Assembly (NCBI GenBank): GCA_050287845.1
Contig: JBNKCR010000019.1
Location: forward strand, 1-52,250
DNA from: Polyangia bacterium
GTDB taxonomy: Bacteria > Myxococcota_A > Polyangia > JAAYKL01
Length of the DNA stretch: 52,250 nt
Direction of reading: 5' to 3'
Below the pieces are notes generated by a model. The model made no database searches. It saw only the letters and a list, made by a program, of their open reading frames with translations, and was not told the DNA's origin. Position 1 is the stretch's first letter. Every line of letters begins with the position of its first letter. This document shows, in pieces, positions 15,578 through 26,207 of the stretch. Position numbers and translations under genes: made by a program.

Positions 15578-17677
15578 ATGAAAAAAAAACAACTCACACC
15601 AAATTCAGCAAATTCACCAGAGTCAGATGAAAGTCGAACAATTGATCTGAACGAATTTCAGAAAAGTACTTTCGCCGAGTGGAAGGATGCTGCCATTCTG
15701 GGATTAAAAGGGGCGCCATTTGAAAAAGTGCTGAAACGGAAGACGCTGGACGGCATCATTCTGGACGCAATTTACGATGATGTGCCCGAGATTATTTCAA
15801 GTGATTCAACAAATGATTTAATTCGGGGGACTGCACAGGTCGGTCGCTGGGGAAAAGGTCAGATTTTTCAATGTAACCGCCCGGAATTATTTGCCATGCA
15901 TCTGAAAAACGCACTCTCCGCCGGACAGGACGAGGTCCGATTTGTTCTGGCGAACCCCCACCGGAGGCAACCGGCAGAAGGTGCGGTGACCATTGAATCG
16001 CCGTATGACATTGGTGTGGAAGTCACCGAACTTTCGCATCTGCACATTGCGTTGCCCGATATTGTCAGGGGCGTTGTGACGCGGTTTCATTGCGGTTCTT
16101 CGGGAATCTCCACGTTGGCGATGTGGGCGGCGCTGCATCATGAGCGCGGGTGGAAAATGACCGAATGGCGTGGCAGTCTTGGCTACTCCCCCATCAGTGA
16201 ACTGGCAACTGCGGGAGAACTGCCGGGAACGGCATCCCGGGTGTTTGACGAGGCTTACGCGCTGGTGCGGTGGGGAAAAGAGAATGCGCCAGATGCCCGG
16301 ATGCTATTGGTGGACGGCTCCACGTATCATAACGGTGGGGCCGGCGCCGCTCTGGAAGTGGCGTGCTGTCTTGGTGAAGTATCGGTATATCTGAATGAAC
16401 TGGTGTCGCGCGGCGGCTCGGTGGACGACGTGACGAGTCGGTTGAGTATCCAGTTGGCGACGGGAGACGATTTTTTTGAAGACATTGCCAAGATGCGTGC
16501 GCTCCGCCTGTTGTTTGCCGGTCTCACCAGAATTCTGGGAGCAACCCGGTTATCATCGCCGGAAATCTGGAGCCGGACATCACGACTGTGGGCAGTGAAG
16601 GATGAGCCGCTCAACAACATTCTGAGAAGCATTTCTGCTACCATGAGCGCCGTTTTCGGCGGTGCGGTCAGCATCCATTCGGCGCCGTTTAACGAAATTT
16701 TCAGTGAGACGGACGATTTTGCCGCGAGAATTTCGCGGAATATTCAGCTCATTTTGCAGGATGAATGTCAGCTGGGAGATGTCGGCGACCCCTGTGGCGG
16801 CGCATATTATGTGGAACACCTGACCGAAAAGCTGGCGGAGAAGGCGTGGGAACTGCTTGGCCAGATGACTTCCCACCCGGACGGATTCCTCGGCGGACTC
16901 TCGGATGGATTGGTGGCAAAAATGGTGGAGGCATCTCACGCCCGACGCATGGAAAAACTGAATTGCAGAAAGCAGAAAATAGTGGGCGTAAATGATTTTG
17001 TGGCGTTTGATGCGGCGGATGACACGATAAAAGAGGCATCGACATTCCAGGCGTCTGCGGAAGAGAGCGACGGGGTTTCAACGGCTGATGTTGCCCTTGA
17101 CTGGCACGGAGACATCATTGGGAGTGCCATCTCTGCTGCGTTGAGCGGCGCCACGCTGCGCGGTATTGACGCCTCAGTGAAAAGGGACGGGGTGTGGCGG
17201 GTACCTGCGGTGACCGGTCCGCGACTGGCTTTGGGATATGAACAGTTGCGCAGACAAGTCACCCTGGTGAACGCCCGGCGACAAAATGAATGTTCGGTGT
17301 TGCTGCTTCGCCTTGGAACCATTCGGGATGCCCGGGCCCGAGCCGATTTTTCAAGGGGGTTTTTCAATGCCGCGGGATTCAGAATTGTCGAATCACCGCT
17401 GTGCAACGGCGTGGAGGATGCGGTAGCGGCGGTACGTTCCGCCCGGGCGGATATAACGGTGTTCTGTTCCACCGACGAGTTGTATGCCCAACTGGCGCCG
17501 CCAATCGCAGAGGCCACTCGCGCTGAATCTGCGACTGTCATGGTGCTGGCAGGTCGTCCGCTCGAGATGGAACCCGCGTACCGGCAGAGTGGAATATCGG
17601 AGTTTATCTTTCTCGGCGCCAATCATTTTCTGCTTCTGAAATCGTTAATCGAAACAGTGGGAGGGCACCATGACTGA
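15578..17677 (+). CDS. mutA: Methylmalonyl-CoA mutase small (beta) subunit
   Basis: LKGAPFEK.L...[44 protein letters not shown]-terminal B12-fold without DxHxxG; overlaps mutB start. Confidence 0.9.
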
Positions 17678-19808
17678 TTATCGGGATATATCGTCGATTT
17701 CTTTTGCTGAGCTGAAAAAAGCAGTCGCCCGGGATACCGCAACGCCAATCGCGAAGCAGGGGGACAATGTCGGAATGGTGGCTGCGGAGCGACTCACCGG
17801 GGTGCCCCACGTTGGCTTCACAGCCGGTGTTCCACCGTATCTTCGGGGGCCATATGCTTCGATGTATGTGACCAGACCATGGACGGTGCGTCAGTACGCC
17901 GGATTTTCAACCGCGGAAAAGAGCAATGAATTTTACCGGAGGAATCTGGCGGCCGGTCAGATGGGGCTCTCCATTGCGTTTGATCTCGCCACCCATCGCG
18001 GATACGACTCCGATCATCCGCGGGTGGTCAGTGATGTGGGCAAGGCGGGCGTGGCTGTGGATTCGATTCTCGACATGAATATTCTGTTCGATTCAATTCC
18101 CCTTGACCGTATGAGTGTGTCCATGACCATGAACGGCGCAGTGTTGCCCATTATGGCGTTTTATATTGTGGCTGCGCGAGAACAGGGCGTCTCCACCGAG
18201 CAGCTCATCGGGACGATTCAGAACGACATTCTGAAAGAATACATGGTGCGCAACACGTATATCTATCCCCCGGTGCCATCCATGAGAATCATTGCGGATA
18301 TTTTCAAGTACACTTCGGCCAATATGCCCAGGTTCAATAATATCTCAGTGTCCGGATATCATATGCAGGAGGCGGGTGCCACGCCGGACCTGGAAATGGC
18401 CTACACCCTGGCGGATGGTCTGGAGTACCTGCGCACGGGAATGGCAGCCGGTGTTGATATTGATGCGTTTGCGCCGAGGGTTTCATTTTTCTGGGCGACC
18501 GGTAAAGATTTTTTCAGAGAAATTGCCAAAATGCGGGCGGCCCGGGTCATCTGGGCCACGCTGGTGAAGTCCCTGGGGGCAAAGAGTCCAAAATCCATGG
18601 CATTGCGGACACATACCCAGACGTCCGGATGGAGTCTGACCGCCCAGGATCCGTACAACAATATTTCGCGAACCTGTGTGGAAGCCATGGCGGCGGCGTT
18701 TGGCGGGACCCAGTCTCTTCATACCAACTCTCTGGACGAAGCGCTGTCCCTGCCAACCGAACGGTCTGCGCGGATTGCCCGAAATACCCAGCTGTTTCTT
18801 CAGGAGGAAACCGGCGTCTGCAGCTGTGTGGATCCCTTTGGCGGAAGCTACTATGTAGAAGCGCTTACCCATGAAATCATGACCCGGGCCTGGCAGCATA
18901 TCCAGGAAATTGAAGCCCTTGGCGGGATGGCGAAAGCCATTGAAACCGGAGTGCCCAAAATGCGCATCGAAGAAGCCGCCGCGAAACGGCAGGCCCGGAT
19001 TGACAGTGGTCAGGAACCGATTATCGGCGTGAACCGCTATCGGCTGGAAGAAGAAGCTGAAATTGAAAGTCTGGAAGTGGACAACACGGAAGTGCGGCGC
19101 GCCCAGATGGCCCGATTGGAAAAATTGAGAAGGGAACGGGATGCCGACGCAGTGGCGGCCACGTTGAACGCCCTGACCCGTTGCGCTGAGACTGGTGAGG
19201 GGAATCTGCTCGAACTGAGCGTTGATGCGGCGGCGGCACGTGCAACTCTCGGGGAAATCACCCTGGCGATTGAAAAGGTATTTGGCCGGCATCAGGCCCG
19301 TGCGGAAGCGGTGAAAGGAGTGTACAGGGGCGAATATATGGACCGGAACAGGATTGATGAAATCGGGCAGTCCGTGGCGCGATTCGAAACGATGGAAGGA
19401 CGCCGGCCGAGACTGCTGGTGGCCAAGATGGGGCAGGATGGACACGATCGGGGGGCCAAAGTGATTTCGACGGCCTTTGCGGATTTCGGCTTTGATGTGG
19501 ATGTGGGAACACTGTTTCAGACGCCGGAGGAAACCGCGAGACAGGCGGTGGAAAACGATGTGCACATTATTGGCATGAGTTCTTTGGCGGGAGGGCATAA
19601 GACGCTGCTGATTCATCTGACCGAAGAACTCAGAAAGCTGGGAAGAGAAGACATTCTGATTGTGGTGGGCGGCGTGATTCCACCGGTGGATATCCCCTTT
19701 TTAAAGGAGAATGGCGCTGCGGCCGTATTTGGTCCGGGCACGGTAATCCCGGATGCGGCAACTGAAATTCTGGCGCTGCTTACACACGTTCTGGGACACG
19801 TTCATTGA
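17670..19808 (+). CDS. mutB: Methylmalonyl-CoA mutase large (catalytic, B12-binding) subunit
   Basis: [53 protein letters not shown]. Confidence 0.97.
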
Positions 19809-19815
19809 GAATGAA

Positions 19816-20832
19816 ATGTCTGGCACAGTAAAAAAACGGACACCGCTGACCCTGGACGACCTGGAAAAGGGTGTGCGGCGGTCTGAACGAACCATCCTGG
19901 GGCGCGCCATCACCCTGGTGGAGAGCAAGGCCCCTGCGCATATGCAACTGGCGTCAGCACTGCTGGGGCGACTCGCCACAACCGAACGCAACACGTTGCG
20001 AATTGGCATTACGGGCGTGCCCGGCGTAGGAAAGAGCACGTTGATCGAAGCGTTGGGGTTGCATCTTCTCTCCATTGGCAAGCGGGTGGCGGTGATTGCG
20101 GTGGATCCCAGCAGCACCATCTCCGGCGGATCCATTCTGGGGGATAAAACCCGGATGGAGCGACTGGTTCAGCACGACAACTGCTTCATTCGCCCAGTGC
20201 CTTCCCGGGGAACCCTTGGGGGGGTGGCGCAAAACAGCATGGAAACCATTCTGCTCTGTGAAGCCGCCGGGTATGATGTTATTCTGGTTGAAACGGTGGG
20301 GGTGGGGCAGAATGAGGCTACCGTACGGGATCTGGTCGACTTTTTTTTACTGCTCATGCTTCCCAATGCAGGAGACAATCTGCAGGGAATCAAACGGGGA
20401 ATCATGGAGCTGGCCGATCACATTTTCATCAACAAGGCCGACGGCGACAGTGTGCATGCCGCGGAATTGGCACGCGTTGAATATGCAGGATCCATGGAAT
20501 TTATGCGGTCATCCACCAGAGGTTGGTCTCCCGCGGTGACCACAGGGTCGGCATTGGCGACAACCGGTGTCTGTGATTTATGGCAGGTGGTGGAGGCGTT
20601 CGCGCGTAACACACAGGAGAGCGGCGCATTTGATGAACGGCGCCGTAATCAGCGGCGTCAATGGTTCAAGCTGAGGCTCGCCCAGCAATTGCAGACCAGA
20701 TTCTTTGCCCATCCGGATGTGCAACAGGAGATTGGCCGTACCGAATGTCTTTTCCTTAAAGGCACCCTTTCTCTGAACGACGCCATGGAGACGATTCTGG
20801 GAGTGATGAATCTTTCTTTGCCGGAAGAGTGA
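19816..20832 (+). CDS. meaB: Methylmalonyl-CoA mutase-associated GTPase MeaB
   Basis: GITGVPGVGKST, AVDPSS..SGGSILGDKTRM, ETVGVGQ, NKADG. Confidence 0.96.
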   Translation: MSGTVKKRTPLTLDDLEKGVRRSERTILGRAITLVESKAPAHMQLASALLGRLATTERNTLRIGITGVPGVGKSTLIEALGLHLLSIGKRVAVIAVDPSSTISGGSILGDKTRMERLVQHDNCFIRPVPSRGTLGGVAQNSMETILLCEAAGYDVILVETVGVGQNEATVRDLVDFFLLLMLPNAGDNLQGIKRGIMELADHIFINKADGDSVHAAELARVEYAGSMEFMRSSTRGWSPAVTTGSALATTGVCDLWQVVEAFARNTQESGAFDERRRNQRRQWFKLRLAQQLQTRFFAHPDVQQEIGRTECLFLKGTLSLNDAMETILGVMNLSLPEE

Positions 20833-21702: not shown

Positions 21703-23316
21703 TCAGCCACCGCAGGCACCGGCCGGGGCTTTGTTGGCGCGATCGTTGGAGAGCGGTTTTTCGCAGCCTTTGAGACCGGGATTGGCCTTGCAGAAGTTAT
21801 CCTGAATCGCCTTGGGCGTAACACCACTGAATTTGGTTGTGCCATTCACAATCCAGGTGGGGCTGGCGCCAATACCGAGACTGTTGGCCACTTTCATGTC
21901 TTCTTTCACGAGATCTGCACCTTCTTCGTTGACGCATTTCTCAATCGCGGCGGCTTTGATAGGCCCGGTGGTGCATTTCTTCCACTCCGGATTTTTATAA
22001 TCTGCGGCGCGGCACCATACATATTTCAGGTAGTCATTGTTTTTGGGATACAGTTTTTTCGCACATGCCCAGCGCATGTCTTCATCAACTTCGGCCTGAC
22101 CGTGCATGGACGAGATTTTGTCCCCGGCCATGTTGGCAATGAAGTGCAACTGGAAATCCATATCCGAACCAAATGCATCCAGCACTTCGCCCATGGCATT
22201 TACCGCCATGGCGCCGAAGGGACACTGGCTCATTACGAATACTTCAAGAGATTTTGCAGTGGCGGGACGACATGCCAGCGTGTTCTGGCAGGTTTCATCT
22301 TCACAATCCACTTTGCCGTTACCGGTGTCGTCTTTCTTGTTGTCACAGATTTCCGCATTGGGATCAAACGACGCTTTCACTTTTACCTGATAGTAATCGC
22401 CAGTTTTGGTCAACCAGCGTTCCATGTGCTTGAATCCTTCTTCATCCTTCTGAACGCTGTCGTCGAACAGCAGGGCAGGAAGCATGGTGATTTTGGCGTT
22501 CGTCGCGATTTTCTGTGCTTCCGCATCGGACCAGTCCATGGTTACCGGCTTGAGGCCCATGAAAATGCCGTTCAAACTCTGGATCATTCTGTCCACTTCA
22601 CATTCTTCGCCACAGCGCTTGTCTGTCAACGCAATCAGCTTCACTTCTGCTGGCGGCTTAATATTTTCACAATATTTCAGACCTTTTTCCTTGCCGAATT
22701 TATTGCAGATGAACTGTTCCATGGCCTGAGCAGAACGGTTTCCGGCATACTTTTCGTCGGCGACGAAAATGGACGGGCTGCCCGTGGCTTTTTTGGCGGT
22801 GGCCAGTTCAAAGCTCTTGGCAAGCAGGTCTTTGCCCTGGTCGCCATCTTTACAGCTTTTGAACTTTTCAAGATCGAGTTTGGCCGTTTTGGCGCATTCT
22901 TCCGCATGGGTGGGAATCTCGCGCCATTTCTTGTTTACGCAGGTCACATAATCCCAATATTCCTTGCTGGAAGGGGCGAGGGTTTTGGCACAAAGGTGAT
23001 TGATATCGCCCTGAACCTCTTTGTCGCCGTGCATACTGGAAAGTGAGCCATCCGGCTTTTTGGCGCCGATAAAATTAATGTTGATCCCCAGCTGTCCCTT
23101 GAATGTCTCAATTAATGGATAGAGCTGATCTATGGCCTGAGCACCGTAAGGGCATTGGGACATGACAAACAGATCAATCACTACTTCTTCTTTTGTCCCT
23201 GCAGCCTTGGCAGCTTTCTCGTCAGATTTTTTCTCCCCGGCATCTTTGGGACCGCAAGCTACTGCGAACATGGCCAATGCGGCCATTATAAATACAGTTG
23301 TCAGTATTTTCTTCAT
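21703..23316 (-). CDS. Cys-rich lipoprotein with two GILT/DsbA-like thioredoxin-fold domains
   Basis: Lipobox AVAC; duplicated FVMSQCP(Y/F)G...SSMHG..EV..D...GSPS/ASPT domains; central EICDNKKDDTGNGKVDC motif. Confidence 0.75.
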   Translation of the reverse strand: MKKILTTVFIMAALAMFAVACGPKDAGEKKSDEKAAKAAGTKEEVVIDLFVMSQCPYGAQAIDQLYPLIETFKGQLGININFIGAKKPDGSLSSMHGDKEVQGDINHLCAKTLAPSSKEYWDYVTCVNKKWREIPTHAEECAKTAKLDLEKFKSCKDGDQGKDLLAKSFELATAKKATGSPSIFVADEKYAGNRSAQAMEQFICNKFGKEKGLKYCENIKPPAEVKLIALTDKRCGEECEVDRMIQSLNGIFMGLKPVTMDWSDAEAQKIATNAKITMLPALLFDDSVQKDEEGFKHMERWLTKTGDYYQVKVKASFDPNAEICDNKKDDTGNGKVDCEDETCQNTLACRPATAKSLEVFVMSQCPFGAMAVNAMGEVLDAFGSDMDFQLHFIANMAGDKISSMHGQAEVDEDMRWACAKKLYPKNNDYLKYVWCRAADYKNPEWKKCTTGPIKAAAIEKCVNEEGADLVKEDMKVANSLGIGASPTWIVNGTTKFSGVTPKAIQDNFCKANPGLKGCEKPLSNDRANKAPAGACGG

Positions 23317-23399: not shown

Positions 23400-23897
23400 T
23401 CAGTGACCGCAACACCCTTGACTGCCATCACCGCAATGATGATGTTCCGGTGGTACCAGTTCCTCTTCGGTCGCTTGCCTGACTTCGGCGATTTTTACAT
23501 CAAAATGCAGATTTTGGCCAGCAAGAGGATGATTTAAATTCACGATGATGTTTTCTTCCTTTACTTCATGAATGATGAACCGCATGGGACCATGAGGGGT
23601 ATTGGCCTGGAACTGCTGTCCTGGCTGCAAATTCTCGGTGTTCGGAAAGTTCTGTTTTGGAATTTCCTGAAATAATTCTTCATTGACCGGACCGTAGCCC
23701 TCTTCCGGGGCCACGAGCACTTTTTTACTTTCGTCAGCGCTCATACCTTCAAGGGCCTTCTCCAGACCGGGGATGATTTGGCCTCTTCCCCATACAAATC
23801 CAAGAGGGCTATCTTCTTCAGATTTGTCGACAACATTTCCCTGGTCATCGGTTAGCGTGTAATTGATGGCCACATACGCTTCATTTTTCACTTTCAT
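23400..23897 (-). CDS. slyD: FKBP-type peptidyl-prolyl isomerase SlyD
   Basis: YTLTDDQG, GQIIPGLEKAL, PEEGYG, NHPLAGQNLHFDV, His/Cys tail HHHCGDGSQGCCGH. Confidence 0.93.
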   Translation of the reverse strand: MKVKNEAYVAINYTLTDDQGNVVDKSEEDSPLGFVWGRGQIIPGLEKALEGMSADESKKVLVAPEEGYGPVNEELFQEIPKQNFPNTENLQPGQQFQANTPHGPMRFIIHEVKEENIIVNLNHPLAGQNLHFDVKIAEVRQATEEELVPPEHHHCGDGSQGCCGH

Positions 23898-24174
23898 TTT
23901 TACAAACACTCCCTGTGAACATTTCCAACAGAAATACTATCGGCCTTTCAGGCCGTATGGCTCGCAACCCTAGTCTGAAGCGACATTTCGGTCAACTTTT
24001 CATTTATATATTTATAAATATATATAACCCCGGATGCGCGCCTTGTTTCATGATGATATGGTTTACCATCGATTGTTCGGTACACAACCCCGGAACCCTG
24101 CAATCTATTCCATTTTTTGGCGTAAAAAACCGTTATTTTCGGTGGAAAGGCGCTCCGATGCTTGTTTCTATGGG

Positions 24175-24522
24175 CTATTCCGGAGGGCTATCCTCCACGG
24201 GGAACGGGCTCTCAGGCGGGTTGTCATATTCTCGCTGAGAGGCGCTCCACCAGTTCGGCGCGCAGGCAGAACTGGAGCAATCATCGCAGAACAGTTCACT
24301 GACTTCTGACCATTGAACGCGTTTCAGATAGCCTTCGTCGCCTTCGGTACAATCCGTCTGGGCAAATATAGCACAGTCTTCGGCGGACGATATTCCCGAT
24401 GTGCAACTGGCCATGCAGTCGTCTTCGCGGATGCAGCATGTGTAGTAGCATCCACCGTCCTTGCATCCTTCGATGCAGAAACAGATCAGCAGGATTATGG
24501 GTACATAAAACGGTGATTTCAT
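24175..24522 (-). CDS. Small Cys-rich acidic lipoprotein
   Basis: Signal with IEGC lipobox; about 10 Cys in the mature part; Pro/Glu tail. Confidence 0.65.
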   Translation of the reverse strand: MKSPFYVPIILLICFCIEGCKDGGCYYTCCIREDDCMASCTSGISSAEDCAIFAQTDCTEGDEGYLKRVQWSEVSELFCDDCSSSACAPNWWSASQREYDNPPESPFPVEDSPPE

Positions 24523-24630: not shown

Positions 24631-25626
24631 TCACTGGTATTGTGCGAGTGCTGCAGATAACTCCACTTTTACTGCATTTGCCAGGGAAATCGGTGATATC
24701 ACTTTCACATGCCGGTGAAACGAGATGATCCAGTTTTTTATCTCGAAATCATCTTCGCCTGCCGGTACATGCACCGTGAGGCGGGTGGTGCCGTCCGGCA
24801 GGGATTCAAGTTTCTGGGAATGATGAAACTGGCGGACGGAGACAAATGGCTTTGATGTTTTATCGAAAAGAAGCACCACTTCGGTGGGGCAGCCCTTCTG
24901 AATAAAAAGCGCATCCATGAAATGGTTTTCCGGTGCGTAATCTTTAGGTAACTGATATTTGGTTCCCCGAATGGCTTCGGTATTGCTCATCCGTTCGATG
25001 GCAAAGATGCGAATGGCGCTGTCCGGTGAATCCACTGCGACCGCCAGCAGGTACAACCCCAGTCTGTAGGTCACCAACGTGTACGGGATCACCGTCATCC
25101 GGGACTGGTTGCCACTGGAAGATGTGTAATCAAATTGAATTTTTCTGTCGTCAAACAATCCCGTGAGAACTTCATCCAAATCTTCAATCTGAGAATCCGA
25201 CAGCTTTTTGGGGCCATCGCTGACAGTGTACATTTTTCGCTTTAAATTTCGGAGATTGATAAAATCCTTTTCTCTGGAGATCTGAGACTCGATGGTTTCA
25301 AAAATTTTATTCAGCGAGTCTTCGAGGAGTGTCCCTTTGCAGAATTCGAACAGGCCGCGCCCCAGAAATAACGCAGCCACATCGGTCAGATTGAACGGGA
25401 TGTTGATGTGCCTCGCCGAGGCCGGAAGAAACCACACTTTCAGGCCTGTATCGAGGGTTTCGCTCTGGAGAGGAACACCCAGCGATATGAGATCATTGAT
25501 GTCGCGATTGGCGGTTCGCCGGTTTACGCCATAGTCTTCCATCATAGTGCGAATTGTCAGTCTGCCATGGCACATGAATCGCCGGTGAAGTTCAAAAAGC
25601 CGTTGATATTTCGTTTTATCCGCCAT
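24631..25626 (-). CDS. WYL-domain transcriptional regulator (wHTH-WYL-WCX; PafB/DriD-like)
   Basis: HTH 'YGVNRRTANRDINDL', 'FDYTS...PYTLV...LYLLA...IRIFAIERM', WCX 'EIKNWIISF...VKVISP.SL...V..EL'. Confidence 0.93.
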   Translation of the reverse strand: MADKTKYQRLFELHRRFMCHGRLTIRTMMEDYGVNRRTANRDINDLISLGVPLQSETLDTGLKVWFLPASARHINIPFNLTDVAALFLGRGLFEFCKGTLLEDSLNKIFETIESQISREKDFINLRNLKRKMYTVSDGPKKLSDSQIEDLDEVLTGLFDDRKIQFDYTSSSGNQSRMTVIPYTLVTYRLGLYLLAVAVDSPDSAIRIFAIERMSNTEAIRGTKYQLPKDYAPENHFMDALFIQKGCPTEVVLLFDKTSKPFVSVRQFHHSQKLESLPDGTTRLTVHVPAGEDDFEIKNWIISFHRHVKVISPISLANAVKVELSAALAQYQ

Positions 25627-25647
25627 GGGTGCTCCCCGGTTGGGTGA

Positions 25648-25678
25648 GACAGATTTTGTCCTACGGAGGGTGTACGCT
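25648..25678 (+). promoter_or_regulatory. WYL-type operator and promoter for the divergent gene
   Basis: GACA-gattt-TGTC palindrome (25648-25660; GAC-N7-GTC core) overlapping TGTCCT-N10-TACGCT, the same spacing as the PafBC promoter TGTCGG-N10-TA-N3-T. Confidence 0.7.
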
Positions 25679-25715
25679 GAATTTAAGGCGAACACAACCC
25701 GAAACGAGGTAAAAA

Positions 25716-26207
25716 ATGTCTGTCAATTACTCTTTCAACGAATATGATTCACACATCACCCCCCCATTCGCAATGTCTATTTTACAGCGGGAAGGCGCTC
25801 ATCTGGGCAACAACGGATTTGCACATGGAATTGTGGTTGTTCCCGAAGGGGTCAGCGGTACCTGCGAGGTGCGAAACTGTATGGGAGATAATTATATCTA
25901 TCAGGAATTGTATCGGAATGGAAAATTGCTGGATACCAATGATCCTTGCAATCTGCGCAGTCATATGCCGTTGGTTCGTGAAGCCGGGGGAGAACTACTG
26001 GTTGCCAATACCGGGTTGGGCGGATTTCTGTACCGGCTGGTGCGAAACCCCCGTGTACTTCATGTGACGGTGGCTGAACCCGACTTTGATGTGATTGAAT
26101 TGGTGGAGCCTTCTTTTTCACGCTTTGCCGACAAGGTGACTTTTGTTCACTGCACATGGCAGCAGTTGGCCCGCAGCAATGATTTTGATCTGATTTATCT
26201 GGGCTGA
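25716..26207 (+). CDS. Short class I SAM-methyltransferase-like (spermidine-synthase-like Rossmann) protein of unknown function
   Basis: RBS gagg; VPEGVSG; LLVANTGLGG (degenerate motif I); HVTVAEPDFDVIELV (acidic residue after strand 2); ends at FDLIYLG, earlier than a complete fold. Confidence 0.6.
   Translation: MSVNYSFNEYDSHITPPFAMSILQREGAHLGNNGFAHGIVVVPEGVSGTCEVRNCMGDNYIYQELYRNGKLLDTNDPCNLRSHMPLVREAGGELLVANTGLGGFLYRLVRNPRVLHVTVAEPDFDVIELVEPSFSRFADKVTFVHCTWQQLARSNDFDLIYLG

Follow-up and report, generated by a model that had tools for sequence, protein, structure and literature searches.

A probable DriD/DdaA-type WYL activator divergent from a truncated methyltransferase-like gene in a Polyangia bacterium

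Background

DriD of Caulobacter, DdaA of the Moraxellaceae and PafBC of the mycobacteria are the closest described counterparts of a WYL-domain regulator that we studied in a Polyangia bacterium. Its gene lies on the minus strand at positions 24631–25626 of a 52,250-nucleotide stretch of contig JBNKCR010000019.1 (this whole stretch is called the window below), back to back with a gene for a protein of 163 amino acids (aa). On balance, we favor the reading that a DriD/DdaA-type activator switches on a truncated and likely dead methyltransferase fold.

In DriD, Arg37 and Arg41 read two guanines and Glu40 reads an outer C (PMC10853764). The driD gene stands in a bidirectional promoter, where DriD activates only the divergent, uncharacterised partner from a site at the −35 position (PMC13004042). 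By eye, the printed promoters of didA (CAAGGT) and CCNA_03891 (CAATCT) carry a hexamer of the form xAxxxT that starts 12 nucleotides (nt) after the site; bapE could not be fitted in this way (PMC13004042). DdaA activates transcription and senses damage by means of two essential tyrosines (PMC13010146). It has the motif CGWCA-N5-TGWCG, about 50 base pairs (bp) upstream of the start site, and an alanine at the first WYL arginine; it activates type I restriction-modification and CRISPR-Cas genes, with control shown by knockout, and in basal lineages it coexists with LexA and controls few genes, some of them near its own locus (PMC12392091). PafBC is a heterodimer with the consensus tGTCgg-N10-tA-N3-T (PMC8635444, PMC11804915).

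The regulator and its promoter

Below, G000 is the present genome (7.2 megabases, Mb), other G labels are compared genomes, and L and P labels are loci and proteins. The elements of the regulator and its promoter are as follows.

24631..25626, minus strand: transcription factor of 331 aa with winged helix-turn-helix (wHTH), WYL and WCX domains; ATG at 25626, stop at 24631; Pfam HTH_11, WYL and WCX above cut-offs
25504..25521, minus strand: recognition helix R36-R37-T38-A39-N40-R41, aligned to DriD R36, R37, T38, E40 and R41
24979..25179, minus strand: WYL domain, predicted sensor of single-stranded DNA (ssDNA); invariant residues Y167, Y192 and R212; Arg207 of DriD corresponds to Ala209
25648..25660, no strand: palindromic box GACA-GATTT-TGTC (GACA-N5-TGTC) with an AT-rich center at the −35 position, a putative activator site; read from the sequence and conserved in relatives
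25673..25678, plus strand: predicted −10 hexamer TACGCT, 12 nt after the box; read from the sequence, with the same spacing in four relatives
25706..25710, plus strand: ribosome-binding site GAGGT, 5 nt before the ATG; read from the sequence
25716..26207, plus strand: 163-aa half-methyltransferase gene with an ATG start; 11 homologs of 159–176 aa

The two genes are separated by 89 bp (25627–25715). Open reading frame (ORF) calling offers an alternative GTG start for the WYL gene at 25695, upstream of the ATG; alignment with 28 homologs placed the start at ATG 25626. The initial annotation had described two divergent genes, the spacer, the box, TACGCT and the ribosome-binding site, and all of these are in the sequence. 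It had also named TGTCCT-N10-TACGCT as a second, PafBC-type element, which is merely the right half-site of the palindrome followed by the −10 hexamer.

A profile of the 28 homologs matched the DriD chains best in the PDB (E value 3e-15), followed by PafBC (2e-9) and BrxR (0.14); CapW was absent from the 15 PDB sequences listed in this search. Residues R36, R37, T38 and R41 were present in 28/28 aligned homologs, and these residues, Y167 (Tyr168 in DriD) and Y192 occupy the same or adjacent positions in DriD. Position 40, at which Glu40 of DriD reads the outer C, was Asn in 26 of the 28, in keeping with the variability of the outer base here. The WYL domain also has K/R188 and R206, and it contains counterparts of the DriD ssDNA contacts Tyr168, Tyr192 and basic residues 189 and 204. 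At the first WYL arginine, a position assigned from the text of PMC12392091 and from PafB R211/R214, the homologs have Ala (23), Ser (4) or Asn (1), and none has Arg.

Going by the description of DdaA, the two regulators share this alanine, the wHTH-WYL-WCX architecture, an inner GACA-N5-TGTC that fits CGWCA-N5-TGWCG, and a box before type I restriction-modification and CRISPR-Cas genes (here in relatives). DdaA differs in that it comes from another phylum, and the outer C/G of its motif is variable here; this comparison rests on the published description of DdaA. The likeness to DriD extends to an AT-rich spacer, a site at −35 without a consensus −35, and a divergent locus with an uncharacterised partner. 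With PafBC the locus shares the GTC triplet and TA-N3-T at the same distance. However, PafBC is described as a heterodimer reading one half-site, whereas here we found one gene, a conserved full palindrome and mostly C or T after GTC.

The initial annotation had likened the promoter to both the DriD and the PafBC types. The DriD comparison held, with a palindrome, an AT-rich center, a fixed distance to the −10 and no consensus −35 all present. The PafBC comparison did not, given the full palindrome, the one closely related WYL gene found in the genome and the lack of GG after TGTC. The window has this single WYL gene, and the other two of G000 are distant in sequence and lie on other contigs.

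The palindrome alone was frequent, with 176 strand-counted matches in the 7.2-Mb genome; the window has 3, where 0.73 would be expected (4 of 100 shuffles). The full pattern GACA-N5-TGTC-N12-TA-N3-T occurred once in the window against 0.01 expected (1 of 100 shuffles). A scan of the whole genome for it, as the initial annotation had suggested, gave two matches, one of them at this site. Because the full pattern was derived from this very site, its conservation in relatives is the real test, and that test was passed.

The 163-aa protein occurred in 6 of the 61 genomes searched, all six in the same family; homolog records are named Deltaproteobacteria or Myxococcota. Linkage and box, whose conservation the initial annotation had left to be checked, both recur. 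The 163-aa gene was divergent from a WYL ortholog in G000, G001, G003 and G009 and at metagenome locus L123. In G002 they keep the divergent orientation across a distance of 21 kb, and both ends have retained a palindrome; in G014 just 30 bases of DNA upstream of the 163-aa-type gene were assembled and a WYL ortholog was not found. The partner gene is preceded by the box in G001, G002, G003, G009 and L123. Each of the five chromosomal partner genes whose upstream DNA could be read has the box, followed 12 nt later by a −10-like hexamer (TACTCT, TACTCT, TAGATT and GATAAT in four relatives). WYL orthologs were present in 13 of the 20 other family genomes; in G000, G001, G002, G003, G009, G010 and G012 the ortholog itself has the box directly upstream.

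Three side observations concern these loci. The interval in G002 (L179–L180, G002:C150:84091-105720), about 21 kb long, is occupied mainly by genes for lipoproteins and secreted proteins. Across the class, the WYL profile matched at E 1e-35 in 84 of 301 genomes. Among the more distant WYL relatives, which come from other families of this class (L210–L220), GAC-N7-GTC-N12-TA-N3-T lies upstream of the WYL gene in 5 of 11 loci.

By analogy, the WYL protein is likely a homodimeric activator of the DriD/DdaA type, and the view that it would work as they do is well supported. The fixed 12-nt distance between box and −10 supports activator geometry, since this is the DriD/PafBC arrangement. Repressors of the BrxR/CapW kind have sites that overlap the −35 and precede defence operons. 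The box has the same placement here, and a repressor that sits on the −35 region and leaves it when a signal arrives would account for this. Yet BrxR matched at E 0.14 against 3e-15 for DriD, CapW was not among the 15 sequences listed, most aligned box sites have no TTGACA-like −35, and the spacing is that of an activator; we therefore consider repression very unlikely.

A second strong box in the genome

G000 has two strong box sites, the one at 25648–25660 and one at G000:C134:16465, which precedes a small orphan gene:

G000:C134:16164-16406, minus strand, outside the window (L192–L196): orphan of 81 aa that follows the second strong box

A matrix trained on 16 defence and repair promoters of relatives ranked these two sites first and second in G000 (32.5 and 29.9 bits), with the next site at 20.0 and shuffled maxima at 18.7–23.3. 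The training sites had been picked with the same strict pattern, so the matrix mainly shows that G000 has no further strong sites. The regulator thus appears to control two genes in G000 beside an intact SOS system. As a side observation, G000 carries two recA and two lexA-like genes (G000:C115, C24, C18 and C79). A box-like sequence at G000:C17:63269 was rejected as a promoter, as it falls inside the hsdM coding region.

The orphan, of 79–81 aa, was present in all four genomes of the genus (73–81% identical) and in no other family genome; outside the genus, a single weak match was found in 301 genomes (E 8e-4). Its C-terminus contains an invariant stretch of 22 residues. Four strands and one helix were predicted, with no family match. 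The structural model was uninformative, with a mean predicted local distance difference test score (pLDDT) of 61.5, a best structural Z of 6.2 (none of at least 8) and Atlas matches all below 0.8.

The 163-aa protein

No Pfam family matched the 163-aa protein, which also fell below NCBIfam cut-offs. Its 11 close homologs have intact frames with the same end point in 11/11. A profile search gave 1149 representatives at E ≤ 0.001, and we describe relatives from the best 150 of these. Among them were phage-type methyltransferase-like proteins (phrog_15480, which the 163-aa protein matched at E 8e-7) and a group with a ribbon-helix-helix (RHH) fusion. In P0013, P0016, P0017, P0019, P0020, P0023, P0029, P0034 and P0048, the same domain is joined through a Gly/Arg-rich linker to a NikA/TacA-like RHH domain, and such proteins are possibly ligand-sensing DNA-binding regulators. 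The viral scan returned none of the RHH-fusion relatives, and a search of the phylum gave four partial matches. At three phage loci of the long family, the neighbors were mostly hypothetical.

The initial annotation's Rossmann methyltransferase-like fold was borne out by modeling. The AlphaFold2 model (pLDDT 87.7) has a beta-meander and Rossmann strands 1–4 only. Its top Foldseek matches were spermidine synthases (E 1e-5), and a wide structure search returned diverse methyltransferases, the best being Hen1 (Z 10.4, root-mean-square deviation 2.0, 85 residues aligned). What had been overlooked was the truncation of this protein and its loss of methyltransferase motifs. We aligned 157 proteins, comprising 12 short forms, 131 phage-type and 14 RHH-type sequences, and left out two longer than 330 aa. 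The motifs concerned have roles in binding of S-adenosylmethionine and in catalysis, and one of them has the following coordinates.

26007..26024, plus strand: degenerate motif I, N98-T-G-L-G-G103, with Asn for the first Gly of GxGxG; from the alignment

The first GxGxG position was Asn in 12/12 short forms and Gly in all 145 other relatives. All 12 short forms end 1–19 residues from strand 4; the 163-aa protein ends two residues past Tyr161, and its helix D and strand 5 are missing. A DxW-type motif after strand 4 was found in none of the 12 short forms, as against 108/131 phage-type and 12/14 RHH-type proteins. The motif M-S-D-T-P-x-E is absent, Glu79 (123/131 phage-type) has been lost in the short forms, and the strand-3 residue Asp147 (107/131 phage-type) is not among their common residues. 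In contrast, Glu121 at the end of strand 2 was kept in 12/12. The protein thus shares an N-terminal beta-meander, strands 1–4 and this glutamate with phrog_15480 and the spermidine synthase fold (PF01564), and it lacks helix D, strand 5, the first motif-I Gly, M-S-D-T-P-x-E, the strand-3 Asp and DxW. It also differs from phrog_15480 in being chromosomal and, by prediction, controlled by the box; in the records examined, the phage family carries annotations only.

Because these motifs are lost, the 163-aa protein quite probably performs no methyl or aminopropyl transfer on its own. It is likely a selected pseudo-enzyme that derives from a mobile-type domain and would work by binding. Residues Arg53, Tyr60, Tyr106 and Arg107 are conserved specifically in the clade of short forms and may mark a binding surface.

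The half-domain might instead be active once a partner, or association with itself, supplied the missing helix and strand. The conserved truncation point of all short forms, the predicted open edge at strand 4 and the 79–81-aa orphan, predicted to be co-regulated and present in all four genomes of the genus, would suit completion in trans. However, an hhalign comparison of the orphan with the missing part gave a probability of 0.1% and no profile similarity, which does not favor a split gene with the orphan as its other half. Motif I is degenerate within the retained half itself, and G009 and G014 have a short form, whereas the orphan was not found there. Completion in trans is quite improbable on this evidence. 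Restoration of the missing half by TGA read-through or frameshifting was also rejected, as the DNA past the stop is not conserved and the stop in G003 is TAG.

There are also relatives of just 98–117 aa, one of them a 101-aa form opposite the WYL gene of G009; they retain the Rossmann half and have their end at the same strand. The 101-aa form was considered as a pseudogene, and this was rejected because two independent relatives of 98 and 117 aa share its start and end.

The box across the family

We scanned the strict box pattern in 21 family genomes and examined all 61 matches. The reversed pattern served as a control, for which 30 of 47 matches were examined. Defence or DNA-processing genes followed 17 of the 61 strict matches, as listed here; since the compared genomes are kin, box counts are not independent.

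Cas3, three times (G002, G007, G018; in G002 at the head of a cas3-cas5-cas8c operon)
HsdM, three times (G003, G012, G013)
HsdR, once; Mrr/type IIG nuclease, once; DrmD-like SNF2 helicase, twice; DUF2779, twice
McrB (then McrC), once; AddB-like PD-(D/E)XK, twice; SbcD, once; DEDDh exonuclease, once

A further eight matches were equally divided between 163-aa-type genes and the 79–81-aa orphan. The remaining 36 were inside genes, at contig ends or before genes that are unknown or have no such role (among the latter an SMC gene, a Bro-N gene, a tRNA and an ATPase gene), and some of them are surely chance. Control sites were placed otherwise, with 28 of 30 inside ORFs of at least 100 aa and none before a defence or repair gene; nor was such a gene found among the 18 scanned ORFs of at least 60 aa downstream of control sites. 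Box-carrying defence systems appear to join the WYL regulon in relatives. The outputs of DriD are others: didA, bapE, recJ and dnaG, against defence systems and two orphans here.

The initial annotation had seen a dedicated two-gene module in which the WYL sensor drives an active methyltransferase for defence. Divergent linkage in four genomes and at L123, the methyltransferase-like fold with Glu121 kept, and the annotation of phage relatives as methyltransferases all agree with that view. Against it, the same box stands before many defence and repair genes in relatives and before one more orphan in G000, the pair is 21 kb apart in G002, and most WYL orthologs of the family face other genes. 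The lack of strand 5, helix D, the first motif-I Gly and the DxW motif speaks against activity, and a module of this kind now seems highly improbable.

Some of the box sites deserve mention in their own right. At L174 (G001:C353), L177 (G001:C142), L045 (G003:C202) and L107 (G012:C138), one palindrome has a −10-like hexamer 12 nt off on both sides; of the two in G001, one is between McrBC and the AddB-like gene and the other between an SNF2 helicase/methylase pair and DUF2779. Small box-preceded ORFs at L169 (G007:C237) and L070 (G010:C4) have, by eye, a common W-T-R-x-R-P motif and are perhaps another regulon member. Further box-preceded ORFs of 123–483 aa (L018, L039, L049, L109, L111) matched nothing when scanned against Pfam, NCBIfam or PHROGs and are candidate defence or stress genes.

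Selection on the 163-aa gene and assignment of the box

The ratio of nonsynonymous to synonymous substitution (dN/dS) for the 163-aa gene was 0.11–0.35 in the 7 of 15 pairs that were unsaturated, with synonymous sites near saturation. Judged from these values, the gene is under purifying selection. In a quick tree of 86 of the 157 aligned sequences (midpoint root), the short forms nest inside the RHH-fusion group, with values of 99 and 96 in the approximate likelihood-ratio test (SH-aLRT). The gene could be the decaying remnant of a mobile-element gene that landed behind the regulator's box, given its nesting among RHH-fusion and phage-type genes, its narrow distribution (6/61 genomes) and the existence of ever shorter forms. 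Such decay is hardly credible beside the low dN/dS, the intact frames with one end point in 11/11 homologs, and the retention of box and −10 after separation from the regulator in G002.

That another factor, a YafY-type WYL paralog or an alternative sigma factor, reads the box and that adjacency is incidental could draw on the R-T-x-x-R kept by both paralogs and on the boxes of G007, where no ortholog was found, but is extremely doubtful, as the box is directly upstream of the ortholog in the seven genomes named above and 53 of the 61 strict sites fall in the 14 genomes with an ortholog.

Interpretation

We propose that DNA damage or phage replication would generate ssDNA, which the WYL dimer would bind. 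The dimer would then dock on GACA-N5-TGTC at the −35 and recruit RNA polymerase to a promoter that has no −35 of its own. The genes of the half-methyltransferase and of the 81-aa orphan would then be induced, together with whatever defence systems have the box. By analogy with the described regulators, we are fairly confident in these regulatory steps, that is, binding of the box by the WYL protein, ssDNA sensing, recruitment of RNA polymerase and activation.

The 163-aa product would act by binding and not by catalysis, and what it binds is the least certain part of our reading. Our preferred guess is a protein partner, for instance a full-length methyltransferase of the same family from a phage or mobile element, which might be held through a clade-specific FLxRL and KVTFV surface, with the 163-aa protein as a decoy and a stress-induced accessory of defence; an adenosyl ligand held by Glu121 would be our second choice. 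An anti-phage role of any kind for this protein is doubtful. A bolder proposal is that the box marks a damage-triggered immunity regulon in these myxococcotal genomes and that the two outputs conserved best are new anti-phage proteins. One would be the 163-aa protein as a decoy, a domesticated and dead half of a protein from a phage methyltransferase family, able to trap the enzyme of the phage or a partner of that enzyme; the other would be the 80-aa orphan. This strikes us as rather unlikely; if true, the box could serve to find further defence genes outside defence islands.

Several observations weigh against the activator reading or limit it. The two YafY-type WYL proteins of G000 also keep R-T-x-x-R in the recognition helix; the helix arginines are therefore not diagnostic, and the assignment of the box to this WYL protein rests on adjacency. 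The DriD ssDNA contacts Arg207 and Tyr240 are not kept (Ala209 and Gln243 at the aligned positions), so the signal may differ from that of DriD. The box is at −35, whereas that of DdaA is reported about 50 bp upstream of the start site. Many WYL orthologs lack a box upstream of their own gene, and in G007 (96% complete) Cas3 follows a box although no WYL ortholog was found. Conversely, G008, G015, G016, G017 and G019 have an ortholog and no box before a recognized defence gene. The raw enrichment of strict over reversed matches (61 against 47) is modest, so it is location and not count that sets box sites apart from the control. In G000 no box was found upstream of either recA, either lexA, sbcD or the type I restriction locus; the regulator is thus not a general DNA-damage regulator in this genome, and the global control of recA and core repair known for DdaA was not seen, much as DdaA of basal lineages governs few genes. 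As for the partner, relatives of 98–117 aa keep or shift the motif-I Gly, with one lacking Glu121. The 163-aa gene is not within a defence island, and neither it nor the orphan matched a PADLOC family at E 1e-5 (2023 library).

The initial annotation had regarded the locus as the window's best candidate for an undescribed system. The switch itself is of a known kind, as this box is already described for DdaA, under whose control stand restriction and CRISPR genes (PMC12392091), and the locus is likely a new branch of this known DNA-damage and anti-phage switch. Because the regulatory logic is already published, the surprise is limited. New, as far as our searches show, are its occurrence in this family with a defence-centered regulon and the truncated pseudo-methyltransferase as a conserved output; no description of the locus or of the effector family was found in the literature searched, which left out most subscription papers; PMC11999265 proved to be unrelated. 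LexA-independent control of the DriD/DdaA type is hereby extended to a family of uncultured delta-proteobacterial/myxococcotal genomes, where the WYL switch appears to coordinate restriction, McrBC and CRISPR-Cas3 rather than recA. Its sharp promoter signature points to candidate defence genes outside defence islands, and a conserved family of pseudo-methyltransferases ending exactly at strand 4 would put half a Rossmann fold to an unusual use.

Neighboring genes

Downstream of the WYL gene, and likewise on the minus strand, are a Cys-rich, secreted-looking ORF (24175–24522), an FKBP/SlyD-like isomerase (23400–23909) and a double thioredoxin/GILT-like protein (21703–23316). Their order is the same in G002, and the Cys-rich ORF is also next to the regulator in G003. 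Further away, the plus-strand region 17670–20832 of the window resembles, by eye, a methylmalonyl-CoA mutase followed by a MeaB-type GTPase.

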